A stretch of DNA of 64,000 nucleotides from assembly GCA_963835275.1 (NCBI GenBank), contig CAWIFC010000003.1:10202-74201 (forward strand). Direction: 5' to 3'. This DNA comes from an uncultured Acidobacteriota bacterium (GTDB lineage Bacteria > Acidobacteriota > Terriglobia > Terriglobales > Acidobacteriaceae). Positions 10,096 to 58,526 of the stretch are shown piece after piece. Each line of letters starts with the position of its first letter. Within the stretch, counting starts at the first letter, position 1. A program made the translations under genes and the position numbers. Below the pieces are notes generated by a model, which saw nothing but the letters and a program-made list of their open reading frames with translations, had not been told where the DNA came from and made no database searches.

Positions 10096-10287
10096 CTCTC
10101 CAAATTGATTGTCCTAACTGCCGGTCCACGTTGCCGCAAGTCCTTGAGTCCAATTCCAATGTGATCTACGTCACAAAGGTCAGTGACGTCCCCAACTGCC
10201 TCCTGCCTCATCGGCAGAGCAGACTATAATCACTTTGGCGGATCGGGAGAGGATGCCTGGACCGGCACAGGGGCCACAAATCAAGTT

Positions 10288-46269: not shown

Positions 46270-47526
46270 TTACTCGTAGCGCAGCGCGTCTACCGGGTGA
46301 AGTCGTGAAGCTTTCACCGCAGGGTAAATGCCAAAAAAGAGGCCGACGCTCATCGAACCGCCAACGGCCATGACCACCGACCAGAGTGGGACCGCGGAAG
46401 GCAGGCTGGGCAAGAGTTTGTTGACCAGGAAGCTGATCACCGCTCCCAAAGAGACGCCAATGATTCCGCCTGTGCCGGTCAGGGTGATTGCCTCGGTTAG
46501 GAACTGACGGATGATGTCGCGGCGCCGCGCGCCGATCGCCTTGCGCACTCCGATTTCGCGAGTGCGTTCCGTGACCGACATGAGCATGATATTCATCACT
46601 CCGACGCCGCCAATGAGGAGTCCGATGGAGCTGATCACGACTACCGCGATGGCAATCGCGCCGGTGATCTGCCGGAACTGGCGCGCTATTTCCTCGGAGC
46701 TGGAAATTGCGAAGTTGTTGGACTTATCCAGGGGAACGCCTCGACGGCGGCGCAACAGGCCGATGATTTCATCCTCAGCTTCCGCCTTCCTGCCGGGAAT
46801 CGCCTGCGCTCCGATGAAATGCTCGTCGTCCTGCGGATTGTTCTTGCGATAGGTCCGGTAGGGCACTACGATGACTTTGTCCGCAGATTCATCCTTAAAG
46901 AACTGTCCCTTGCGCTTTTCCAGTACGCCGACGACCCGGTAGGAGTCGTCACCGACCCGAATGGTCTTGCCCAGCGGGTCTTCTTCGTGAAACAGGCCGT
47001 CGGCCAGGTCGTGGCCGATTACGGCTACGTCCATGTGGTGCAGGTCTTCGGCCTCGGTAAAGAATCGGCCTTTCTCGGGTTGAGCATTGTAGACCCACTC
47101 GTACGACGGAATGGTGCCGGTGAATTGAATTCCAAAGACCTCGTTTCCCTTGTAGCGCGCGGGTACTTGCGTGAAAGGCTGGCCGGGTTCGATCCGTGGA
47201 GAAACTTCCAGGGTCACATCCTTGACATCGGGGCATTCTTCCTGGATGGCCATGGCATCTTCGTAGGTAAGCGGCTTGCGATTGCGTTCCTCTGGGGTAA
47301 GCCGCCCGCGGAAACCGAAATCCCAGCGGAATACGAACAACGTGTTGGTTCCGTATTGATCGAGAAAGCCGCGAATGTCGCGATCCAGGCCGACCATGAT
47401 GGAAGCGACGGCGACGATGGCCATGATTCCGATCACTACGCCCAGAACGGTCAGCAGCGACCGCGCCTTGTGCTGGCGGAGGGAATCGAAGGCCATGCGC
47501 GTGTTTTCGCCGAGCTCAAACTGCAC
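46270..47526 (-). CDS. MacB-like ABC transporter permease (MacB periplasmic core + FtsX domain)
   Basis: N-terminus FDSLRQHKARSLLTVLGVVIGIMAIVAV and C-terminal FtsX region REIGVRKAIGARRRDI. GTG start. Confidence 0.85.
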   Translation of the reverse strand: MQFELGENTRMAFDSLRQHKARSLLTVLGVVIGIMAIVAVASIMVGLDRDIRGFLDQYGTNTLFVFRWDFGFRGRLTPEERNRKPLTYEDAMAIQEECPDVKDVTLEVSPRIEPGQPFTQVPARYKGNEVFGIQFTGTIPSYEWVYNAQPEKGRFFTEAEDLHHMDVAVIGHDLADGLFHEEDPLGKTIRVGDDSYRVVGVLEKRKGQFFKDESADKVIVVPYRTYRKNNPQDDEHFIGAQAIPGRKAEAEDEIIGLLRRRRGVPLDKSNNFAISSSEEIARQFRQITGAIAIAVVVISSIGLLIGGVGVMNIMLMSVTERTREIGVRKAIGARRRDIIRQFLTEAITLTGTGGIIGVSLGAVISFLVNKLLPSLPSAVPLWSVVMAVGGSMSVGLFFGIYPAVKASRLHPVDALRYE

Positions 47527-47549
47527 GATAGCAACCTCTAAGACTTGTT

Positions 47550-47630
47550 TCCTTTGTGTACCTTCGTGTCCTTTGTGGTTGACGAACTACAAATGCAATA
47601 ACCACAAAGGACACGAAGGTACACAAAGGA
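47550..47630. repeat. perfect 31-bp inverted repeat with 19-nt loop (REP-like palindromic element)
   Basis: tcctttgtgtaccttcgtgtcctttgtggtt ...19 nt... aaccacaaaggacacgaaggtacacaaagga. I checked by hand that the two arms are exact reverse complements. Confidence 0.85.
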
Positions 47631-47659
47631 GAACTCGTAACTTAATCAATGCCTAAGTC

Positions 47660-49012
47660 TCAAACCGAAGCGCCTCGATGGGATCCAGCTTGGCGGCGCG
47701 GTTCGCCGGGTACAGGCCGAAGAACAACCCCACCGCTGTAGATATCGCCAACGATAAAATAACCGCACCGAGAGGGCACCTGCGACGGCACGGGTGTGAA
47801 GAACCTCACCAGGGCCGACAACATGTAGGCGATGGCGACTCCCGCCGCGCCGCCTACGGCCGCCATCACCGCCGATTCCACCAAAAACTGCATCAGGATA
47901 TCGAGCCTTCGGGCTCCCAGCGATTTGCGCACACCGATCTCGCGGGTGCGCTCGGTCACGCTGGCAAGCATCACGTTCATGATCACGACGCCACCAATCA
48001 GCAGAAACACCGAAACCACGCCCACCATGGTTTTGGCGATGGCGCCGGTCAGGTTTTTCCATAAGCCCATGATCGTGTCAGACGCAAGAATGCCGAAACT
48101 GTCATCGGCGTTGGGATCGAGGTGGCGGCGGGCGCGCATGATGGTGCGGGCTTCGTTTTCGGTTTCTCGCATCCACTCCGGGCCGCGACCCTGGATGTTA
48201 ATGGCAATATCCTGGTTCCGTTCTCCGTACACCTTCAGCCAGGTCCGGATCGGGATGTAGGCAAAGTCGTCCTGGGATTGCCCGAACACGGTTCCAATCG
48301 CTTTGGCTACCCCAACCACTTCGAAGCCGCGTCCGTCGATGTAAATCGTTTTACCGATGGGATCGACGGTCGGAAACATCCGCTTGGAGACTTCTTGCCC
48401 GATGAACGTAACCTGGGTCCGGTTGTCATTGTCGGCATCGGTGACGTAGCGCCCACTCTCGGGTTCCTCCACATCCATGTCCGCGATATTGGCGGTTACG
48501 CCGCGGATGTTGATGTCTTCCATGGTTTGCGTCCCCAAGCGCACTTTGCCTTGCGTGCGAACCTCCAGGCCGACGGCTTTCGGCAGCCTCATGTTGTCAT
48601 GCAAAGCCTGGAAATCGTCCCAAGTGATGTTGCGATTGCGGCGCATCGCTTTGAAAAAATCCTGCTGATTGGTGATGATGGGGAAGCGCACGACGAGGAA
48701 GACGTTGGACCCGAGATTGGCGACCCGATCCTGAATGTAGTGGTCCGCACCGGCGATCACGGAAACCACGAAGATCAGCACCGCTACTGACAGGGTCACG
48801 CCCAGCAGGGTCAGGGCGGAGCGCAGTTTGTGAGCGCGCAACGCTTGCAGCGCCTCAAGCGCAGGATCGCGGAAGATCGTACCGTGGTGTCTGAGCCGCT
48901 GTCCAGTTCGCGAGACAGCAGAGTTCCCAAGCTGTCCTCGAGGAACCGTTGCGTCGATTACTGCAGAGTCCGTATGCGCCACCCAGACCACCGCCTGCCT
49001 TCGCCCACTCAT
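47660..49012 (-). CDS. MacB-like ABC transporter permease (second copy)
   Basis: [30 protein letters not shown] and [16 protein letters not shown]. The start is tentatively ATG 49012, although the ORF extends to 49075. Confidence 0.8.
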
Positions 49013-49133
49013 CGTATACGAATGCCGTCGAAAATAGTTCCTGCTAGATTGACGAAGTAGCAGGCAAAAAGACACTTCGCCGGAGGAACCGGGACGCGAG
49101 CGAGGTTCTGGAGACTACTGCGCGGGAGGAACG

Positions 49134-49640
49134 CTACTTGAACAGATCCGCGCCGGCTTTGGCGCATTGGGCGTCCTGTGCGCTGGTAGCGCCCGAAACC
49201 CCAATCGCTCCAACGATCTTGCCATCAATCAGGAGCGGGATGCCACCTTCGATGGGGGTTGCGCCCTGTAGGCGAAGAAGACGCAGGCCGTCTCCACCGG
49301 CCGCCAGCGCATCCTGGAAGGCCTTGGTCGGCCGCTTGAAGAGCGCGGCGGAGCGCGCCTTGTCAATGGCAACGTTGGCGCTTCCGAGTTGGGTGTTATC
49401 CATTTTCTCGTAATAAACCAGATTGCCTGCGGGATCGACTATCGCCACGGCAACCGACCAATTGTTCTTCGCGGCTTCCGCCAGTGACGGCGCAGCCGCC
49501 TTCTTGGCATTGTCCAGACTGATCGACGGGCCGTAGGGATTGGGCATCTGGGCGAACGCGCCGGTTAACGGGAAAGCCATGACCACTAGGGCGACAATCG
49601 ATCTTGTCGCCTTCATCGCTGCCATTGATTTCAGTGACAT
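49134..49640 (-). CDS. GlcG/HbpS-like (DUF336) haem-binding family protein, secreted
   Basis: AVAIVDPAGNLVYYEKMDN...GGIPLLIDGKIVGAIGVSG matches the GlcG/DUF336 pattern. A signal peptide is present. Confidence 0.8.
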   Translation of the reverse strand: MSLKSMAAMKATRSIVALVVMAFPLTGAFAQMPNPYGPSISLDNAKKAAAPSLAEAAKNNWSVAVAIVDPAGNLVYYEKMDNTQLGSANVAIDKARSAALFKRPTKAFQDALAAGGDGLRLLRLQGATPIEGGIPLLIDGKIVGAIGVSGATSAQDAQCAKAGADLFK

Positions 49641-50799: not shown

Positions 50800-51798
50800 A
50801 TGGCAACAGACAACATTCAGCCCATGCCGGGAGGCGAACCCGAACTGAATCTGCTGCTGTCCAAGAGCGACTTGGATCAGCCGCTGTGGAAGTCCCTGTT
50901 TCAGGGGTTGGACGAACTGTTCTTTCCCAAGAAGCAGGCGCCGCTGGTGCTGACGTCCAAGCCGATTCCGGTCCGGGATATTTGGGGATTCTACGATTAC
51001 AAGAAAAACGGCGCACTGGGTTCGACGATAGTGCACCTTCTCGCGGTAGCTGTGATCATCGGTGGAACCATACTGGGCCGGCGGGTGGTGCAGCAGATCA
51101 CAAAACCAGCAGAGGTGGTGACGCTGATCGCTCCCGACGATATTCCTCCGCTCGAACCTTCGAAAACGCAATCTGGCGGCGGTGGTGGTGGTGGTGACCG
51201 CGACAAGTTCCAGGCGTCGAAAGGCAGGCTGCCCAAGCTATCGATGCAGCAGATCACTCCGCCGATGGTGGTGGTCCGCAACCCAAATCCGAAATTGGCG
51301 GTCGAGCCTACCATCGTGATCCCGCCGGAAGTTCATTTAGCGATGAACAACATGCCGAACCTGGGCGATCCCATGTCGCACTTGCCCTCGGGGCCGCCAT
51401 CGAATGGTACGGGTTCAGGCGGTGGCATTGGCTCGGGAAATGGCGGTGGCGTGGGCTCGGGTGAAGGACCGGGGTTTGGTCCGGGCCACGGCGGTGGGAC
51501 TGGCGGTGGAGCGTTCAAAGTTGGCGGCGGAGTATCCGCGCCGAAAGCAATTTATGCGCCTGATCCGGAGTACTCCGAGGAAGCGCGCAAGGCGAAGTAT
51601 CAGGGGACGTGCGTTCTATGGTTAGTCGTCGGTCCGGACGGCAGGGCGCGCGATATTCGCGTGGCTCGCACGCTTGGTCTGGGACTGGACGAGAAGGCCA
51701 TGGAAGCGGTGAAGACCTGGAAGTTTGAGCCGGCGATGAAGGATGGTAAGCCGGTTGCCGTGCAGATTAACGTGGAAGTCACCTTCCGCTTGTACTGA
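50800..51798 (+). CDS. TonB-family energy transducer
   Basis: One TM segment, a Gly/Pro-rich spacer, and the C-terminal TonB domain YPEEARKAKYQGTCVLWLVVGPDGRARDIRVARTLGLGLDEKAMEAVKTWKFEPA. Confidence 0.85.
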   Translation: MATDNIQPMPGGEPELNLLLSKSDLDQPLWKSLFQGLDELFFPKKQAPLVLTSKPIPVRDIWGFYDYKKNGALGSTIVHLLAVAVIIGGTILGRRVVQQITKPAEVVTLIAPDDIPPLEPSKTQSGGGGGGGDRDKFQASKGRLPKLSMQQITPPMVVVRNPNPKLAVEPTIVIPPEVHLAMNNMPNLGDPMSHLPSGPPSNGTGSGGGIGSGNGGGVGSGEGPGFGPGHGGGTGGGAFKVGGGVSAPKAIYAPDPEYSEEARKAKYQGTCVLWLVVGPDGRARDIRVARTLGLGLDEKAMEAVKTWKFEPAMKDGKPVAVQINVEVTFRLY

Positions 51799-52645: not shown

Positions 52646-53470
52646 TTACTCAGCCAGATCCACGTGTTGCACATTATCGATGGGATGTCCGAGGAATTGC
52701 GCGCCGAGGCGGCGGAACTTTTCCGCTGAGTCGGTTGCGAAACATTTCAGTCGAGGCAACTGGCGGCGCTCGACTTCAGGCGCGGAGGGCAGTGCAGTGC
52801 GGCGCAGCAGCCTGCCGACGGCATCGGCGGTGGCGTCGGCGGAGTCGACGATCTTCACATGCTTGGGAGCGACCTTGTGCAGCACCGGTTGGATGAGTGG
52901 ATAGTGCGTGCAGCCCAGCAGAAGCACATCGGCCGATTTGAACCCGTCGGTAAAGGCTTCTTTGAGATAAATACGGGCCACCTCTTCAGTCACTGGATGA
53001 TCGATCCAGCCCTCCTCTACCAACGGCACCAGTAATGGGCAAGCCTTTTCTCTGGCCTCGACGCCTCGAGTTTCAAGGGCCTTCAAATAAGCATGGCTGC
53101 TGACCGTAGCTTCGGTGCCAATCACGACGACCTTCTTGTTCTCACTCTCGCCGGCAGCGCGCTCGGCACCCGGTTCGATCACGCCTACAACGGGAACCGT
53201 TGCCGCTTGGGTGATCTTGTCCAGGGCCAGAGCCGTGGCCGTGTTGCACGCGATGACTAGCGTCTGTGCGCCCTGCTGTTCGAGAAAGTGCGCTGCGCCA
53301 ACAGCATACCTGGCCACGGTTTCCGCAGACTTCGAGCCGTAGGGCAGTCGCGCGGTGTCGCCGAAGTAGAGGTAGTCGGCGTCAGGGATTAATCGAAGCA
53401 GCGCTTTGAGGACCGTCAGTCCACCAAAGCCGGAGTCGAAAACGCCGATGCAAGTTCTGCGGGTGGTCAT
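52646..53470 (-). CDS. murI: glutamate racemase
   Basis: IGVFDSGFGGLTVL, ACNTA and GCTHYPL carry the two catalytic Cys motifs. Trimmed to ATG 53470. Confidence 0.92.
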   Translation of the reverse strand: MTTRRTCIGVFDSGFGGLTVLKALLRLIPDADYLYFGDTARLPYGSKSAETVARYAVGAAHFLEQQGAQTLVIACNTATALALDKITQAATVPVVGVIEPGAERAAGESENKKVVVIGTEATVSSHAYLKALETRGVEAREKACPLLVPLVEEGWIDHPVTEEVARIYLKEAFTDGFKSADVLLLGCTHYPLIQPVLHKVAPKHVKIVDSADATADAVGRLLRRTALPSAPEVERRQLPRLKCFATDSAEKFRRLGAQFLGHPIDNVQHVDLAE

Positions 53471-53477
53471 GAAAAGA

Positions 53478-54704
53478 TCAGGAGTGCCGCTCGGAGTTCG
53501 CCAAAGACACACCGGCAAGGCTTCCGGTCCTGCCGCAACATGGTCCGGGCGGAATTAACGCGCCGTGCGGGCAGGTGCGGGGGTGGCCGAGGAATGCGCA
53601 GATCTTGTCGGTGGCTTCGGGGGAGAGGATATGCTCGAACTTGCAGGCTTGTTGCTCGATTTCGCTCTCGCTGTCCATGGCGAGGCTGTCGGTGAACAGG
53701 CGCTCGGCCAAACGGTGGCGGCGGATGATGTCGGCGGCACGCTGTCGGCCGCGGGGCGTGAATTCCACGATCAGGCTGCCGTCGCCGACCGAGACTCCGG
53801 TCGGCTTCAGGGCATCGTGGCAAGGATTCACGAACGGTTTGTGGTCGTGGGCTTCGGGCGGATGCGGCCTCGCCGTGACCAGGCCTAGCGCCATCATTTT
53901 TTCCACTGCGATGCTGACTGGGAGCGCCCCGTGTACTTCCATGCGGCCGACCTCGGCGATCTCGCCGTGTTCTTCCAGCGCCCACAGTTCTTCGAGCACC
54001 TCGTCGAACTGTTCCTCGTCGGCCATGGCGAAGACTTCTTGTACCGCGATCTTGCCGTGATGCAGTTCGATGCGGCGGTCGGCGAGGCGGGCGACGACAG
54101 GGTCGTGCGTCACCATCACGATGGTGCGTCCCTGCTGATGCAGTTCGCGAAGCAGGCGTAGGACAATCTCCTCGTTCACTGCGTCAAGGTTTCCCGTGGG
54201 CTCGTCGGCAAGCACGATCTTGGGATCGTTGATCAAGGCGCGCGCGATGCAGACACGCTGCTGTTCGCCCCCGGAAAGCTGCGACGGTACGTGATGAGCG
54301 CGCTCCTTTAGTCCCACGCGCTCCAAGGCTTCGAGCGCTTCCTGTTCATCCGTCATGCTATGGAAATACTGGGCCAGCATGACGTTTTCGAGCGCGGTCA
54401 GATAGGGAATCAGATGGAATTGCTGGAACACGAAGCCGATTTTTTCCGCGCGGACTCGATTCAGTTCACTTGCAGAAATGCGGGCGACGTCTTCGCCATC
54501 AAGCCAAATCTCGCCAGAGGTTGGACGATCCAGGCAGCCGATCAGATTTACTAATGTAGATTTGCCCGATCCGGAAGGGCCCATGATCGCGATCCACTCA
54601 CCGGGGTCGACGTTCAGGCAAAAATCGTCGAGGGCGCGGATGACACCGCCGTTGGCCTCGGCCTTGGCCGGGTAGAGGCGGCTGACATTTTTCAGCTTGA
54701 TCAT
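53478..54704 (-). CDS. ABC transporter ATP-binding protein (MacB/LolD type) fused to a C-terminal DtxR/MntR-like metal-dependent regulator module
   Basis: aa 1-222 carry [25 protein letters not shown] and VTHD. aa about 228-386 carry [15 protein letters not shown]...ALGLV (wHTH-like) and [19 protein letters not shown]...[35 protein letters not shown] (Fe_dep_repr_C-like). Confidence 0.8.
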
Positions 54705-54705
54705 C

Positions 54706-55854
54706 TCACTCCCCTCTCAAGATCATAGCGGGTTGCACGCGCCGCAGCAGAAAAATCGGAAGCACGGCTGAAATCAAGGCCACAGCAACGCTGCCTACAA
54801 AGACCATCGGCAGGACGTTAAAGCGCGGCACCACCGGCGCATGGAAGTTTACCCGGCCGATCCACGCGGCGACTCCAACGCCAATGCCGAAACCGATGAT
54901 TGCTCCAAAGGCTCCTAAAGCGGCTGCTTCGGCGGCGAAGAACCCGCCGATCAGCCCTTCGGACGCGCCCAGGGCCTTCATGATGGCAAAGTCCCGCCGC
55001 CGGTCAAACACCCATCCCATCAAAGTAGATAGCACGCACAGAGCCGCTGTTGCGATGATCAGCACAGCGGCAGCCGCCAAGGTGGCGCGAGTCTTTCCCA
55101 ACACACGCGCTTCACCTTCCATGATCTGGCGGATGGGATGCACCTCTGCAGCCGGGAGGATCTGCGACAGTCTTTGAACCAGAGCACCGATTTCTTCAGA
55201 CGAACCAGAAGACGCAATTTCTATCGTCGATGGTTGAACTCCTGTCCAGCTTTCGAAATCGTTCAACGAAATATATATGCGGCTGTCTTCGGACGCTCCA
55301 GTGCGTAGGGTTCCGGCAGAGTTCAGGTGAACAGTACGTTCCTTGAAACTAAGGTCGAAAGGCCTTCCTTGTGGGCTGACTACCGCGGCTGCACGTGTCC
55401 CGATCAACGCATCTTGCGACACGTTAGGCCAAGCGGTTACCGACCACCAGCTGTCCAGCTTGCGAACCTGATCGAGATCGGTGCCGGAAACGACGACCGA
55501 CTGGCCGTCGGACGTGCGAGCCACTACATAGGCGAAGGGAACGGCCAGACCGTGCCCAGCGAGAGCGGCGTCAATTTTGCTGAGTGCGTCGGCGGGAAAT
55601 TCCTGGCCATCTTTCGCGACTACCACGATGTTCGCGCCGTAGTTGCGGAACTCCTTGCGCAGCTTGGCTTGCACGTCCACGTAGAGATTGAGCATGGCAG
55701 TGGCGACAGCGGCGGCAACCACCATCGCGAGCAAGGCAGACGCAGCGCGTCCACGGCGGAGCACGGCGGCGCGCATCAGCATGCGCAGAAACATCGAAGT
55801 GTGAGGCTTGGCTGCGCGGCGGTTGATGAGGTCCGAGTTTCGGTTCGAACTCAT
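54706..55854 (-). CDS. FtsX-like ABC transporter permease
   Basis: The N-terminal TM segment is followed by a periplasmic domain (KEFRNYGANIVVVAKDG) and three C-terminal TM segments containing DFAIMKALGAS. ATGA overlap with the upstream gene. Confidence 0.82.
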   Translation of the reverse strand: MSSNRNSDLINRRAAKPHTSMFLRMLMRAAVLRRGRAASALLAMVVAAAVATAMLNLYVDVQAKLRKEFRNYGANIVVVAKDGQEFPADALSKIDAALAGHGLAVPFAYVVARTSDGQSVVVSGTDLDQVRKLDSWWSVTAWPNVSQDALIGTRAAAVVSPQGRPFDLSFKERTVHLNSAGTLRTGASEDSRIYISLNDFESWTGVQPSTIEIASSGSSEEIGALVQRLSQILPAAEVHPIRQIMEGEARVLGKTRATLAAAAVLIIATAALCVLSTLMGWVFDRRRDFAIMKALGASEGLIGGFFAAEAAALGAFGAIIGFGIGVGVAAWIGRVNFHAPVVPRFNVLPMVFVGSVAVALISAVLPIFLLRRVQPAMILRGE

Positions 55855-57110
55855 GCTTCACCTTTCAGCGCGTAGACAGGGTCGAACTTGACGGCGCGGC
55901 GAATTGCCATTGCGCTGCCGGCGAAGGTTACGATCACAGCAATGGCCAGGATCACGGGGAAGAGAACAGGCTCAATGGTGATTTGGGAATCGAATATGGA
56001 GCGGCCGATCTGACGGGCGAGCAAGGCACCTCCCGCGAAGCCTACGACGCCGCCAATCAGCGCCAGCAGCAAGGCTTCCGCGAAGAACAAGGCTGCAACG
56101 GAAATATTCCCCGCCCCCAAAGCCTTCATCAGGCCAACCTCGCCGCGGCGCTCAAAAATGGCTGTCGCCATAGCGGCGGAGACCGCGAGTGCAGATGCGA
56201 AGAGCGCGGCCAAGGTGACCAAGAGCATCAGGCCTTTAATCCGCGAGAGTACCGTGCCTTCGTTCTGGGCTATTTGGCGAATCTGTTCCGCGTGCGAGTG
56301 CGGAATCGCCTCCTGCAACTGATAGGCAATGGAGGCTACGTACGGCGAGCAATACCAGCGGTCGAACATCTCCGGATTCATCGTCTTGGGATCGCGGCGG
56401 GACAGGGTATCTTCGGGCTTGGTCAGCGCACTCACGTAGAGGCGGCGCACGGCTCCAGGCTTGCCGAGAATCAGTTGGGCCAACGCGAGGGGAGCGACGA
56501 TCTGATTGTCTTCCGCTCCGCCAGTAGAAAGAATGCCGACAACGCGATGAGCTTGACCCGCGATTTCGATTTCATCTCCCGTCTTGTGCCCAAGTCTTGC
56601 GGCCAGACTCTCACCTAGCAACACGTCGGACGAGTTGTCGTCGGGCCATGCCCCTTGCACTTTCCACCAGGGATGGGTAATGCGCACTCCCGTTGCAAAA
56701 TCCTCTTTACCGAAAGTGAGCCGCTTTGAGAAGTAGGTCCCGAGCAAGGTGAGATTTGTCGCGTTGCTACCAATCCGTACGGGTACGGGGAGCATGGGGG
56801 CAAACCCCACGATGTTGTGATGCCAGAACGTGCCTCTAATCTTGGGTAAATCAGCTTCGTTGAGGTAGGCACCGTCGCTCGGCGGCTTCAGATCTACGCC
56901 GCCGATTTGAACGTCGAGAGTATCTTCCTGCGGAGTGACGATCAGGTTCGCGCCATAGCTGCGCAACTCGCGGCTGATCTTGTCGCCAATGTCGGTCGCA
57001 ACCGCGACCATCGCGGTAGCGACAGTGACGCCCAACGTGATCGCAACCCCCGCCAGCAGTTTGCGTCGTTTTTGTCGCCGGAAGGATTCGTAGACTAGGC
57101 GTCCGAACAT
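55851..57110 (-). CDS. FtsX-like ABC transporter permease
   Basis: MFGRLVYESFRRQKRRKLLAGVAITLGV, SRELRSYGANLIVTPQ and EVGLMKALGAG. Trimmed to ATG 57110, 2 nt after the FTR1 stop. Confidence 0.82.
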   Translation of the reverse strand: MFGRLVYESFRRQKRRKLLAGVAITLGVTVATAMVAVATDIGDKISRELRSYGANLIVTPQEDTLDVQIGGVDLKPPSDGAYLNEADLPKIRGTFWHHNIVGFAPMLPVPVRIGSNATNLTLLGTYFSKRLTFGKEDFATGVRITHPWWKVQGAWPDDNSSDVLLGESLAARLGHKTGDEIEIAGQAHRVVGILSTGGAEDNQIVAPLALAQLILGKPGAVRRLYVSALTKPEDTLSRRDPKTMNPEMFDRWYCSPYVASIAYQLQEAIPHSHAEQIRQIAQNEGTVLSRIKGLMLLVTLAALFASALAVSAAMATAIFERRGEVGLMKALGAGNISVAALFFAEALLLALIGGVVGFAGGALLARQIGRSIFDSQITIEPVLFPVILAIAVIVTFAGSAMAIRRAVKFDPVYALKGEA

Positions 57111-57112
57111 GG

Positions 57113-58360
57113 TTATGGCTGGAACATGCGGCTCTTCGCCGCGATGTCCGCCTCCTGGATGATGACCGCGTCGGCTGTGACTTGGGCCTTTAGTGGTACG
57201 GGATTGCATCCGCCAGGCATTCCGACCGATTGCGGATTGATGGGAGCAGCACAGTTCTTGCAGACCACTCCGTTCGGCCCTTTGTAAAACCCAACCGCAC
57301 CGCAGATTTCGCAGGCATCAAGAACGGTGGCGATCTTGCCATCCGGCTTCTGGTACAGCCAGAAGCGCACGGTGCTGCCATTCTCCTGGGCGGCAAAGCG
57401 GTGCAAATCGCCATCTTGAACCTGCGTGAGCGGAATGCTGACCTGGCCATTTACAAAGGTAATCTCGGTTGCTGGCGACAACGCGCTCACGCTCTTGGTG
57501 TAGATGAACTCGGCGGTGACAAGGACGATGAAGACAAAGGAACTGGCATAGACGGAGGCCATCCACAAACGTTCGCGGCGTGCGGTCCAAACTGCTTTCC
57601 GCCTTTCAGCAGCGGAGGCGGGCAACGCGGATGGTTCGCGCCGCTTGACCTCGAACAGCACCATGAGCGCGGCCAGGGCGAAAATCGTGATGAAAAAGAA
57701 CAGGTCATTGCGCACGATCGGACCAATGATCGCCATCTCCGTCTTCGAAGAAGGAAGAACGCCGTTTTCGGAAAGCTCGTGCAGGCCGGAGATCACCAAC
57801 TGCGCAGCCACGAAGAACAAAATCACTGTAGTGACGCGAAAGAACTTTTGCAGATTGATGCGGACGCTGCCCTTGACGAACATTACGCCGAATGCAACGG
57901 CGGCGATCACACCCAGAAATGTGCCCAGGAAGCTGAGCAGTTCGGTCGAGTTCAGGGAGACGGCCGAGAGAATCAGGACGGTCTCTACACCCTCCCGCAG
58001 CACCATGAGGAATACGAACGCGAAAAGCCCGAACCACGCGTTCCGGCCCGCCAGCAGCCCAACTTTGCCCTCGATCTCGCCCTTCAGTTTGCGGCCCGTT
58101 TTCATCATGAAAACGATCATGGTGACAACGAAGAAGGCAGCGGCCAGCATGACCCAGCCTTCGAAAATGTCTTGATTCCAGCGGGTGCGGGAGAGAAGGG
58201 CGGCTACTCCCAGGCTGCCGACGAAAGCGGAGATCAGGGCCGCATAGACGGACTTACGCAGTTCCGGGCGATTGATTTTGGAAAGATATGCCAGGGTAAT
58301 CCCCACGATCAGGGCGGCTTCGACCCCTTCTCGCAAAGTAACGATGAATGCTTCTAACAT
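57113..58360 (-). CDS. FTR1-family iron permease fused to a C-terminal DUF2318-like Cys-rich domain
   Basis: Two RExxE motifs (TLREGVEAAL and VLREGVETVL) lie in a 7-TM body. A further TM segment follows, then LHRF...RFWLYQKPDGKIATVLDACEICGAVGFYKGPNGVVCKNCAAPINPQSVGMPGGCNPVPL. Confidence 0.8.
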   Translation of the reverse strand: MLEAFIVTLREGVEAALIVGITLAYLSKINRPELRKSVYAALISAFVGSLGVAALLSRTRWNQDIFEGWVMLAAAFFVVTMIVFMMKTGRKLKGEIEGKVGLLAGRNAWFGLFAFVFLMVLREGVETVLILSAVSLNSTELLSFLGTFLGVIAAVAFGVMFVKGSVRINLQKFFRVTTVILFFVAAQLVISGLHELSENGVLPSSKTEMAIIGPIVRNDLFFFITIFALAALMVLFEVKRREPSALPASAAERRKAVWTARRERLWMASVYASSFVFIVLVTAEFIYTKSVSALSPATEITFVNGQVSIPLTQVQDGDLHRFAAQENGSTVRFWLYQKPDGKIATVLDACEICGAVGFYKGPNGVVCKNCAAPINPQSVGMPGGCNPVPLKAQVTADAVIIQEADIAAKSRMFQP

Positions 58361-58390: not shown

Positions 58391-58421
58391 GATATTGAAA
58401 ATGAATTTCAATTTCATTATC
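58391..58421 (-). promoter_or_regulatory. AT-rich Fur-box-like palindromic operator
   Basis: The minus strand reads GATAATGAAATTGAAATTCATTTTCAATATC. The first 8 nt equal the Fur consensus start GATAATGA. The core AATGAAATTGAAATTCATT is 16/19 self-complementary. It lies 31-61 nt upstream of the FTR1 ATG. Confidence 0.5.
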
Positions 58422-58422
58422 T

Positions 58423-58452
58423 AGGATAGTCTTTCGCCTTCTGCGGCGTCAA
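58423..58452 (-). promoter_or_regulatory. candidate sigma70-type promoter TTGACG-N18-TATCCT for the iron operon
   Basis: On the minus strand, -35 is at 58447..58452 and -10 is at 58423..58428, directly abutting the Fur-like box. Confidence 0.4.
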
Positions 58453-58526
58453 CGCGCGAGATCACGAGCGATTGTGATCTGAATCACGCAGTTTTTAGTT
58501 AGGATGCCGACCCGGCTCCGTTAGAT

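Follow-up and report, generated by a model that had tools for sequence, protein, structure and literature searches.

We analysed a 64,000-nt stretch of DNA (the window; positions 10,202 to 74,201 of contig CAWIFC010000003.1, assembly GCA_963835275.1) from an uncultured bacterium of the Acidobacteriaceae (Acidobacteriota). It carries a minus-strand operon of four genes, which encode, in this order, an FTR1 permease fused to an FtrD-like domain, two FtsX permeases (A and B) and an ATP-binding cassette (ABC) ATPase that continues in the same reading frame into a C-terminal module with the fold of the DtxR family of metal sensors. The stop and start codons of successive genes overlap or lie 1-2 nt apart. 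The genes and the parts of the fusion gene are given below, where NBD stands for nucleotide-binding domain, AF2 for AlphaFold2 and pLDDT for its predicted local distance difference test score. Counts out of 29 refer to the full-length fusions from genomes; the module was aligned by MAFFT with DtxR, IdeR and MntR.

57113..58360, minus strand: FTR1 permease fused to an FtrD-like/DUF2318 domain, 415 aa (FTR1 E=1.5e-38; FtrD-like E=3.4e-29)
55851..57209, minus strand: FtsX permease A, including a periplasmic core domain of MacB type (FtsX E=6e-17; MacB_PCD E=2.7e-15)
54706..55854, minus strand: FtsX permease B, 382 aa (Pfam FtsX E=7e-16; weak MacB_PCD match)
53478..54704, minus strand: complete fusion gene, 408 aa and a stop codon (ABC ATPase followed by a C-terminal DtxR-fold module)
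54039..54704, minus strand: NBD, aa 1-222 (Pfam ABC_tran, NCBIfam, Foldseek)
54024..54050, minus strand: short linker, aa 219-227, from the last NBD strand to helix 1 of the module (poorly conserved; pLDDT low when the full-length protein is modelled)
53760..54023, minus strand: degenerate winged-helix sub-domain, aa 228-315 (AF2 topology, Foldseek, alignment with DtxR, IdeR and MntR)
53775..53864, minus strand: His/Cys-rich insert in the wing, aa 281-310 (±2) (15/29 fusions, AF2, column conservation)
53550..53759, minus strand: dimerisation and metal-binding domain, aa 316-385 (Pfam Fe_dep_repr_C, phmmer against the PDB, ligand columns)
53535..53549, minus strand: PGPCC motif, aa 386-390, with the Cys pair C389/C390 (CC in 27/29 fusions)

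An earlier reading of the letters without database searches (the sequence-only reading) had described the fusion gene as a single uninterrupted 408-codon frame, and the translation of 53478..54704 agrees with it. The sub-coordinates given there were also correct (nt 54023 is the first of aa 228 and nt 53547 the last of aa 386; the insert begins with R279, at nt 53870), and the motifs that it had named are present: the signature LSGGEQQR at aa 143-150, Walker B (IVLADEPT) at 163-170 and the H-loop (VTHD) at 198-201. Walker A lies at aa 42-50. With a Pfam ABC_tran match over aa 26-170 of the whole protein (E=1.9e-37) and Walker A, Q-loop, signature, Walker B and H-loop all in place, the N-terminal part belongs to the ABC ATPases. 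The nearest NCBIfam families of the first 222 residues were the MacB NBD, LolD and FtsE, but all scores were below the curated equivalog cut-offs (MacB 228.5 bits, cut-off 966; LolD 213.9 bits, cut-off 307.75; FtsE 204.5 bits, cut-off 264.85), so that the ATPase is a relative of these groups rather than a member. The best PDB matches of the full-length model among the top 50 of a Foldseek search were MJ0796, MacB, LolD and FtsE, and the partner permeases are encoded by two adjacent, translationally coupled FtsX/MacB_PCD genes. We conclude that aa 1-222 are a type VII (MacB/LolD/FtsE-like) ABC ATPase.

The joining of a MacB/LolD-type ATPase to a DtxR-fold module is a genuine, recurrent gene fusion, as the sequence-only reading had taken it to be; the same frame occurs in related genomes. 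A word-indexed search with the C-terminal 194 residues as query returned 1080 relatives. The best 120 of these were 77-93% identical, most with both PF00005 and PF02742, and the named organisms among these 120 were Terriglobia; shorter database entries proved to be internal-start or frameshifted calls of the same fusion gene. An exhaustive search of representatives gave 2574 representatives, most of them stand-alone proteins of ~220 residues, together with divergent, Pfam-confirmed fusions of 312-401 residues at 47-49% identity. With a short-type fusion as query, more than 120 clusters of 358-366 residues were obtained, for which the NCBI label is only 'ATP-binding cassette domain-containing protein [Candidatus Acidoferrum]'. 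One JGI entry is titled 'ABC-type lipoprotein export system ATPase subunit/Mn-dependent DtxR family transcriptional regulator'. The ABC-DtxR architecture is thus already visible in databases, under generic names. We also scanned 185,579 species-level genomes with patterns from the ABC part and found at least 28 loci with a full-length module, all in metagenome-assembled genomes (MAGs) and nearly all in Terriglobia. The matches listed come from Acidobacteriaceae, Terriglobales, Sulfotelmatobacter, Angelobacter and Acidoferrum/Acidoferrales and, outside the Terriglobia, from one Ca. Udaeobacter and one Ca. Eisenbacteria, plus one unclassified bacterium.

Corrupted copies do occur among the relatives. 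In P0050 the frame runs on into murI, and a frameshift in L008 removes the CPHG...CC end of the module. P0205, in which a transketolase is followed by Fe_dep_repr_C and FeoA, was judged to be a frameshift chimera and rejected as a second architecture; counts of architectures in metagenomes therefore need care. Such copies would fit an assembly or annotation artefact in which a sequencing error merged two neighbouring genes. However, NBD and module are contiguous in one frame in 28/28 related genome loci listed, and conservation runs unbroken across the NBD-module junction. Joined in this frame, the two parts recur in 28 independent species-level assemblies and, among metagenomes, in well over a hundred clusters from many samples, which leaves the artefact a negligible probability, and we rejected it.

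The C-terminal part of the protein matched Pfam Fe_dep_repr_C over aa 316-385 (E=1.6e-25; 89 bits against a gathering cut-off of 27), and a phmmer comparison with PDB sequences retrieved IdeR and DtxR at 1e-13 to 1e-11. The N-terminal DNA-binding family of DtxR proteins, Fe_dep_repress (PF01325), gave no match with the whole protein at E<=0.1, nor with aa 227-408 or aa 227-336 alone at E<=10. No helix-turn-helix (HTH) model matched aa 228-315 even at permissive thresholds, and three other fusion subtypes were likewise without a Fe_dep_repress or HTH match at E<=1. As positive controls, DtxR, IdeR and MntR matched Fe_dep_repress at 1e-20 to 1e-27, plus a dozen generic HTH families, and these strong scores make the missing HTH match in the fusions meaningful. 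Of the three Pfam families expected by the sequence-only reading, ABC_tran and Fe_dep_repr_C were therefore found, but Fe_dep_repress was not.

We modelled the module (aa 222-408 alone) by AF2 with an alignment of 47 diverse sequences and obtained a pLDDT of 90.6 and a predicted template modelling score (pTM) of 0.85. The model has a long helix at ~227-245, about one turn at the place of DtxR helix 2, a helix at 263-272, a β-wing (276-280 and 311-315) and then the three helices of the dimerisation domain. The winged-helix sub-domain accordingly comprises helix 1 (aa 228-245; DEVLEELW), which begins ~8 residues past the last NBD strand, a helix 2 that is vestigial, helix 3 (aa 263-272) and the wing; the insert was modelled as additional β-hairpins inside the wing (pLDDT 81-91). 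By Foldseek, the module aligned over 157-168 columns with IdeR and DtxR chains of two domains (E about 1e-7; 7e-8), with TM scores of 0.73-0.82, normalised to targets of 137-147 residues. The by-eye alignment of the sequence-only reading to the whole DNA-binding and dimerisation core was therefore right at the level of the fold. Its wording of a 'complete DtxR/MntR-like module' went too far: Fe_dep_repress has no match, helix 2 is reduced to about one turn, and of the structured parts the stretch from helix 2 through helix 3 to the wing shows the lowest conservation. The winged-helix part keeps the DtxR fold, but its sequence signature is lost.

Conservation between subtypes follows this division. 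Identity was 0.61 in the NBD and 0.62 in the metal-binding and dimerisation domain, 0.44 in helix 1, and 0.21-0.22 in the helix-2 loop, helix 3 and the wing, the lowest values of the structured parts. The linker (0.13) and the tail at aa 391-408 (0.13; low pLDDT), which is unconstrained, were lower still. We conclude that the dimerisation and metal-binding domain is intact and that the winged-helix part is degenerate, probably no longer reading DNA.

The ligand positions of DtxR have the following counterparts in the window protein, with their conservation among the fusions.

DtxR Met10: E235, on helix 1; Glu in 16/29, His in 13/29
DtxR His79: H330; kept in 26/29
DtxR Glu83: E334; kept in 29/29
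DtxR His98: E350; Glu in 15, His in 10, Asp in 2, Ala in 1 and Asn in 1 of 29
DtxR Cys102: C354; kept in 29/29
DtxR Glu105: E357; kept in 29/29
DtxR His106: H358; kept in 29/29

The sequence-only reading had listed H79/E83 and C102/E105/H106 as retained, and the alignment with DtxR and IdeR bears it out for all five. The fusions have six further, essentially invariant residues that DtxR and IdeR lack (C369, H374, C378, H380, C389 and C390). The two fusions out of 29 that lack the CC pair come from one truncated and one frameshifted MAG. In an explicit alignment, C378-P-H380-G corresponds to C123-P-H125-G of SloR and ScaR. The crystal structure of MtsR places the primary sensing site at H76, E80, C123 and H125 (PMC6698748), the equivalents of which in the fusion are H330, E334, C378 and H380. 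Judged by these aligned ligands, both canonical metal sites of the DtxR family are intact, and one of them would use a residue of helix 1. The ligands are mixed (Glu or His at Met10, Cys102 kept, a Cys/His-rich second site) and therefore allow no confident choice between Fe and Mn.

Differences in inserts separate the fusions into subtypes. Subtype a (Terriglobales), to which the gene in the window belongs, carries the wing insert, with conserved H281, H286, H288, N293, C295 and H296; subtype b is short and has no insert; and subtype c has another His/Cys-rich insert, HGPGHPLxCPLANTxDCC, in the linker between NBD and module. Members of subtype c are L019-L022, L027 and P0159, Ca. Udaeobacter among them, and this subtype also has an additional segment of ~9 residues ahead of helix 3. 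The His/Cys-rich insert of ~30 residues that the sequence-only reading had seen in the wing is thus real, but confined to one subtype (15/29). A phmmer register that paired the insert with the recognition helix of IdeR was dropped, as both the MAFFT alignment with insert-less subtypes and the AF2 model place the insert in the wing. Inserts have been gained independently at two positions (the wing in subtype a, the linker in subtype c), which argues for selection on metal binding.

Two other uses of these residues have to be weighed against metal sensing. The five invariant cysteines (C354, C369, C378, C389 and C390) and the histidines could form an Fe-S cluster, or a redox or structural-Zn module. 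The ATPase would then be a reporter of Fe-S or oxidative status, or else the role of the site would be structural only. It would be in keeping with this that C369, H374, C378, H380, C389 and C390 are found also in most stand-alone relatives examined but not in DtxR/IdeR, and that subtypes a and c have additional Cys-rich inserts. However, C378 and H380 map to the mononuclear Mn/Fe site of MtsR, SloR and ScaR, conservation extends to the carboxylate and His ligands at both canonical sites, and the Fe-S motif spacings that we would recognise are absent; we regard an Fe-S or Zn module as quite improbable. Alternatively, the module could be a metal-independent clamp, a constitutive dimerisation or assembly domain that holds two ATPases together and senses nothing. 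Pfam describes DtxR domain 2 as a dimerisation domain, and a structural role is possible for C-terminal dimerising domains on NBDs. Yet ligands that are irrelevant to dimerisation, the Glu or His at position 235 of helix 1 included, are invariant over a large divergence, and His/Cys-rich inserts were independently gained in two subtypes, so that a mere clamp seems very unlikely.

A DtxR fold on a membrane-bound ATPase could also act on DNA. The membrane-anchored ATPase would then also control transcription in a metal-dependent way, either of its own genes or of other iron genes, much as ToxR/CadC-like membrane regulators or 'trigger transporters' do. Such a tethered repressor was the alternative offered by the sequence-only reading. 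The module does have the complete two-domain IdeR/DtxR fold, with a helix at the position of the recognition helix and a β-wing; helix 3 is well conserved inside the Terriglobales subtype a (0.68), and subtype b retains TLARME, which resembles TVARME of DtxR. In contrast, the controls reached 1e-20 or better with HTH profiles where the module gave no match at E<=1-10, helix 2 is vestigial in a high-confidence AF2 model, and ~30 residues are inserted within the wing. The sequence-only reading had found the recognition-helix positions to differ from those of DtxR, and they are indeed non-canonical. In the alignment with DtxR, Q43, R50 and R60 of DtxR, which we take to be DNA contacts, are replaced by Ile or Ala, by Ala and by Gly, respectively. 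Moreover, no other structured region varies more between subtypes than helix 3 and the wing. The opposite pattern would be expected of a surface conserved for reading DNA, and this variability therefore counts against DNA binding. The net charge of the wHTH-like segment, considered as a further argument against DNA binding, was dropped, as the N-terminal domains of DtxR and IdeR are also net negative.

The promoter region of the operon bears on the same question. It contains the following elements.

58423..58452, minus strand: sigma-70-like promoter, TTGACG, 18-nt spacer, TATCCT (consensus scan; both hexamers conserved in related loci)
58391..58421, minus strand: Fur-box-like hexamer palindrome GATAATGAAATTGAAATTCATTTTCAATATC (inverted repeats; directly downstream of the -10 hexamer)
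58473..58488, minus strand: CGTGA-N6-TCACA dyad, putatively of CRP/FNR type (upstream of the -35 hexamer)

An AT-rich palindrome on the operon promoter would suit a tethered repressor, and the sequence-only reading had suggested the box at 58391..58421 for a binding assay with the protein. The palindrome GATAATGAAATTGAAATTCATTTTCAATATC is unique in the window, and its core is kept in 12/14 subtype-a promoters. Its three hexamers are arranged as in a Fur box. Compared with the E. coli Fur 19-mer it has 5 mismatches, and only 1/500 random 250-nt chunks of the window matched as well. No DtxR/IdeR-type box was found in the window, and 58391..58421 was rejected as a DtxR operator. In addition, operator type and helix 3 do not covary: in L005 and L012, AGTTGCAACT-type repeats replace the TTGAAATTGAAATTCA palindrome at the promoter, although helix 3 (ALPVSLAVEKM in L005, AIPLALAVEKM in L012) is nearly identical to that of the window protein. 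A pairing of module and box is thus not supported. Taken together, DNA binding by the module is unlikely, and so, in our judgement, is a transporter-tethered repressor.

Two further observations concern the promoters. L005, L012 and the subtype b and c loci carry AGTTGCAACT-type or GTTGCAAATCATTTTCAAC-type repeats with a common TTG(A/C)AA half-site. A TGTGA-N6-TCACA dyad stands at the place of the dyad at 58473..58488 in L001, L003, L004, L006, L007 and L008, and is degenerate in L010.

The sequence-only reading had assigned the ATPase to an iron-uptake ABC module, and the FTR1-FtrD/FtsX/FtsX operon confirms this. The FTR1-FtrD protein has two REGVE motifs and a CxxC-x13-CxxC-x14-C motif that matches the DUF2318 motif described in PMC6083913; against NCBIfam it was EfeU-like, under the cut-off. 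The fusion of FTR1 and a DUF2318/FtrD-like domain in one protein is kept in related loci. Permease A likely starts at M34 (57110), as most tblastn matches begin at residues 32-34; it overlaps permease B by 4 nt, and the stop codon of permease B lies 1 nt ahead of the start codon of the ATPase. The gene order, with the ATPase fusion last, is kept in every related locus with upstream DNA, the Udaeobacter and Eisenbacteria loci included, and the divergent fusion P0163 also directly follows an FtsX gene. We conclude that there is strict linkage between the fusion and an FTR1-FtrD operon for iron uptake, the operator of which is of an iron type, and that the ATPase is a subunit of a type VII (FtsX/MacB-like) engine in an FTR1-FtrD ferrous/ferric iron-uptake system, a relative of the Campylobacter 1649-1654 (Ftr1/P19) system.

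In Campylobacter jejuni, an iron uptake system described as widely conserved consists of Ftr1, P19, a DUF2318 protein, two permeases and an ATPase, and its FtsX and ATPase genes are required for P19/Ftr1-dependent iron acquisition (PMC6083913). The Campylobacter genes 1649-1656 and the operon in the window share an FTR1 protein with REXXE, the DUF2318 motif CxxC-x13-CxxC-x14/15-C, two FtsX genes and an ATPase gene, in the same order and with a Fur-type box. They differ in that FTR1 and DUF2318 are separate genes in Campylobacter, with P19 between them, whereas one fused protein is encoded here. There is also no P19, thioredoxin or FMN-binding gene beside the operon (the flanks were checked; elsewhere in the window the search for P19 was not exhaustive). 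The Campylobacter ATPase is described in PMC6083913 as a cytoplasmic ATPase with no mention of an additional domain, a comparison that goes by this description only.

The operon context also raises the possibility that the module is a cytoplasmic iron acceptor or metallochaperone, which would take iron from FTR1 and pass it on like the metal-binding domains of P1B-ATPases. Several conserved metal sites and His/Cys-rich loops, together with an FTR1 permease from the same operon at the membrane, could serve such a role. However, the module is attached to the ATPase and not to FTR1, nothing points to an FTR1 interface, and DtxR-type sites are allosteric sensors in every characterised family member (PMC6698748). 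An acceptor role therefore seems highly improbable.

The operon is flanked by an SprT-like gene upstream and by murI, then a GNAT gene, downstream. The murI gene (Asp/Glu racemase family; 52646..53518, minus strand) follows the fusion gene. As listed, with a TTG start, it has a 41-nt overlap with the fusion, but the real start is likely the ATG at 53470, 8 nt past the stop codon of the fusion. It adjoins the fusion in only some related loci and at variable distance, and therefore lies outside the conserved cluster. Possibly iron-related genes nearby are those at 46270..49640 on the minus strand, namely MacB_PCD/FtsX permease genes (46270..47526 and 47660..49075) and a gene for an HbpS-like haem-degrading protein (49134..49640), and, on the plus strand, a gene for a protein with a TonB C-terminal domain and a Gly-rich linker (50800..51798).

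We lean, with modest confidence, towards the reading that the module is a cytoplasmic Fe(II)/Mn(II) sensor that would gate the ATPase post-translationally, with trans-inhibition as its logic. The sequence-only reading had proposed metal-gated trans-inhibition too; it agrees with all findings from sequence and predicted structure, and is the reading that we favour. Two copies of the ATPase would sit under the FtsX heterodimer with their modules facing each other, and with two copies per heterodimer the two modules could form a DtxR-type dimer beneath the NBDs. A rise in cytoplasmic Fe(II), or possibly Mn(II) or another divalent metal, would fill two sites: the DtxR 'primary' site, made of E235 on helix 1 with C354, E357 and H358, and the MtsR-type site, made of H330, E334, C378 and H380 and perhaps completed by C389/C390. 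The bound metal would tie helix 1 to the dimerisation domain and stiffen the module dimer, which, through the short linker, would constrain the NBDs so that the ATP-driven closure cycle would not be completed. The periplasmic work of the FtsX engine, and with it iron entry through FTR1, would then halt. Such a mechanism would provide fast post-translational negative feedback on top of transcriptional control through the Fur-like operator.

C-terminal domains of NBDs mediate trans-inhibition in MetNI and ModBC (PMC10710835). In those systems, as would be expected here, the ligand is the transported species in the cytoplasm and the feedback is negative and fast (PMC10710835). The fusion resembles MetN (C2 domain) and ModC in that the regulatory domain is C-terminal, directly after the NBD, and present in two copies per transporter (one ATPase gene and two permease genes). 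Its fold is different, consisting of a DtxR winged helix and a helical dimerisation domain in place of the C2 or ModC regulatory fold, and a Pfam scan of the module gave no match to the MetN C2 or ModC regulatory-domain families. Furthermore, the metal is predicted to bind at DtxR-type sites here, in contrast to a pocket at the dimer interface in MetNI and ModBC. The ABC class also differs, the fusion belonging to an FtsX/MacB-like type VII system and MetNI and ModBC being, as we take it, type I importers.

With DtxR, IdeR, MntR and the MtsR/SloR/ScaR group, the module shares the two-domain fold, Fe_dep_repr_C and the metal ligands, both those of the primary site in DtxR and those of site 1 in MtsR. 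Unlike these proteins, the fusion is not a free, soluble transcription factor; it lacks the Fe_dep_repress signature, its helix 2 is vestigial and its wing carries an insert. It also has no C-terminal SH3/FeoA domain but an invariant CC instead. Among the ligands, Glu or His takes the place of Met10, and in 27/29 fusions Glu, His or Asp that of His98.

Several points weigh against metal-gated trans-inhibition. That metal would inhibit rather than activate the ATPase is suggested only by the logic of an uptake operon. The trans-inhibited ABC systems known to us are type I importers with substrate-binding proteins, and we know of no type VII mechanotransducer that is so regulated. The full-length AF2 model (mean pLDDT 76, pTM 0.51) is confident for the NBD and for the C-terminal module but leaves the linker undefined (pLDDT <50), and hence gives no confident geometry between the two. 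Finally, the conservation of helix 3 in subtype a and the TLARME of subtype b imply that this surface is used for something.

The sequence-only reading knew of no described example of such a protein. Likewise, we found no published description of an ABC-DtxR fusion in a search that reached few papers in subscription journals, and a 2023 review of post-translational regulation of transporters (PMC10710835) does not mention one.

The closest stand-alone relatives of the module place the fusion in a wider group. All ten that we tested (10/10) consist of Fe_dep_repr_C and FeoA, and they, too, gave no Pfam HTH match. They share with the fusion the acidic helix 1 ((D/E)ExLExLW), RRHRLAERL and ACxFEH, and those examined have, with few exceptions, CPHGxPIPxGxCC. 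They differ from it in being free proteins with a C-terminal FeoA domain rather than an N-terminal NBD, and in being linked to FeoB rather than to FTR1/FtsX. In 4/6 look-ups feoB, or a FeoB-type fragment, immediately preceded the gene and had the same orientation; the other 2 contigs were too short to tell. These feoB-linked relatives are P0156, P0162, P0200 and P0233 (loci L081, L087, L088 and one JGI contig), of a large clade of proteins of ~220-250 aa; no separate small feoA gene was visible in the short contigs. The lack of a Pfam HTH match, the common motifs and the adjacency to feoB suggest that the whole clade may consist of transporter-associated sensors rather than classical repressors, and the stand-alone Fe_dep_repr_C-FeoA proteins may accordingly be FeoB-linked iron sensors and not classical DtxR repressors. 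However, repressor genes often adjoin the transporters that they regulate, so that the feoB context alone is not decisive. As a tentative proposal, to which we give clearly less than even credence, this clade of DtxR-fold proteins gave up DNA binding and became allosteric iron sensors on transporters, fused either to an ATPase or, when following feoB, to FeoA.

The DtxR family comprises the textbook transcriptional metal sensors. If metal-gated trans-inhibition is correct, one of these sensors would control transport directly, within seconds rather than through gene expression. The trans-inhibited ABC systems, a very short list so far, would gain both a new sensor fold and, with type VII, a new ABC class. 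The fusion would then be the first trans-inhibited type VII (mechanotransducing) system, with the activity of the engine tied to cytoplasmic iron. A built-in iron sensor implies that the output of the FtsX engine limits iron entry, which would bear on the role of the FtsX module that goes with Ftr1/P19-type uptake in many bacteria, pathogens included, and mutants in the ligand sites could serve as tools for studying the engine. Drawn from sequence and predicted structure, this is a clean, conserved and directly testable prediction that would surprise specialists. The fusion is abundant in soil Terriglobia, which are dominant and poorly cultured and the iron physiology of which is ecologically relevant; if the proposal for the whole clade holds, iron uptake in these mostly uncultured soil bacteria would be throttled post-translationally by a repurposed repressor.

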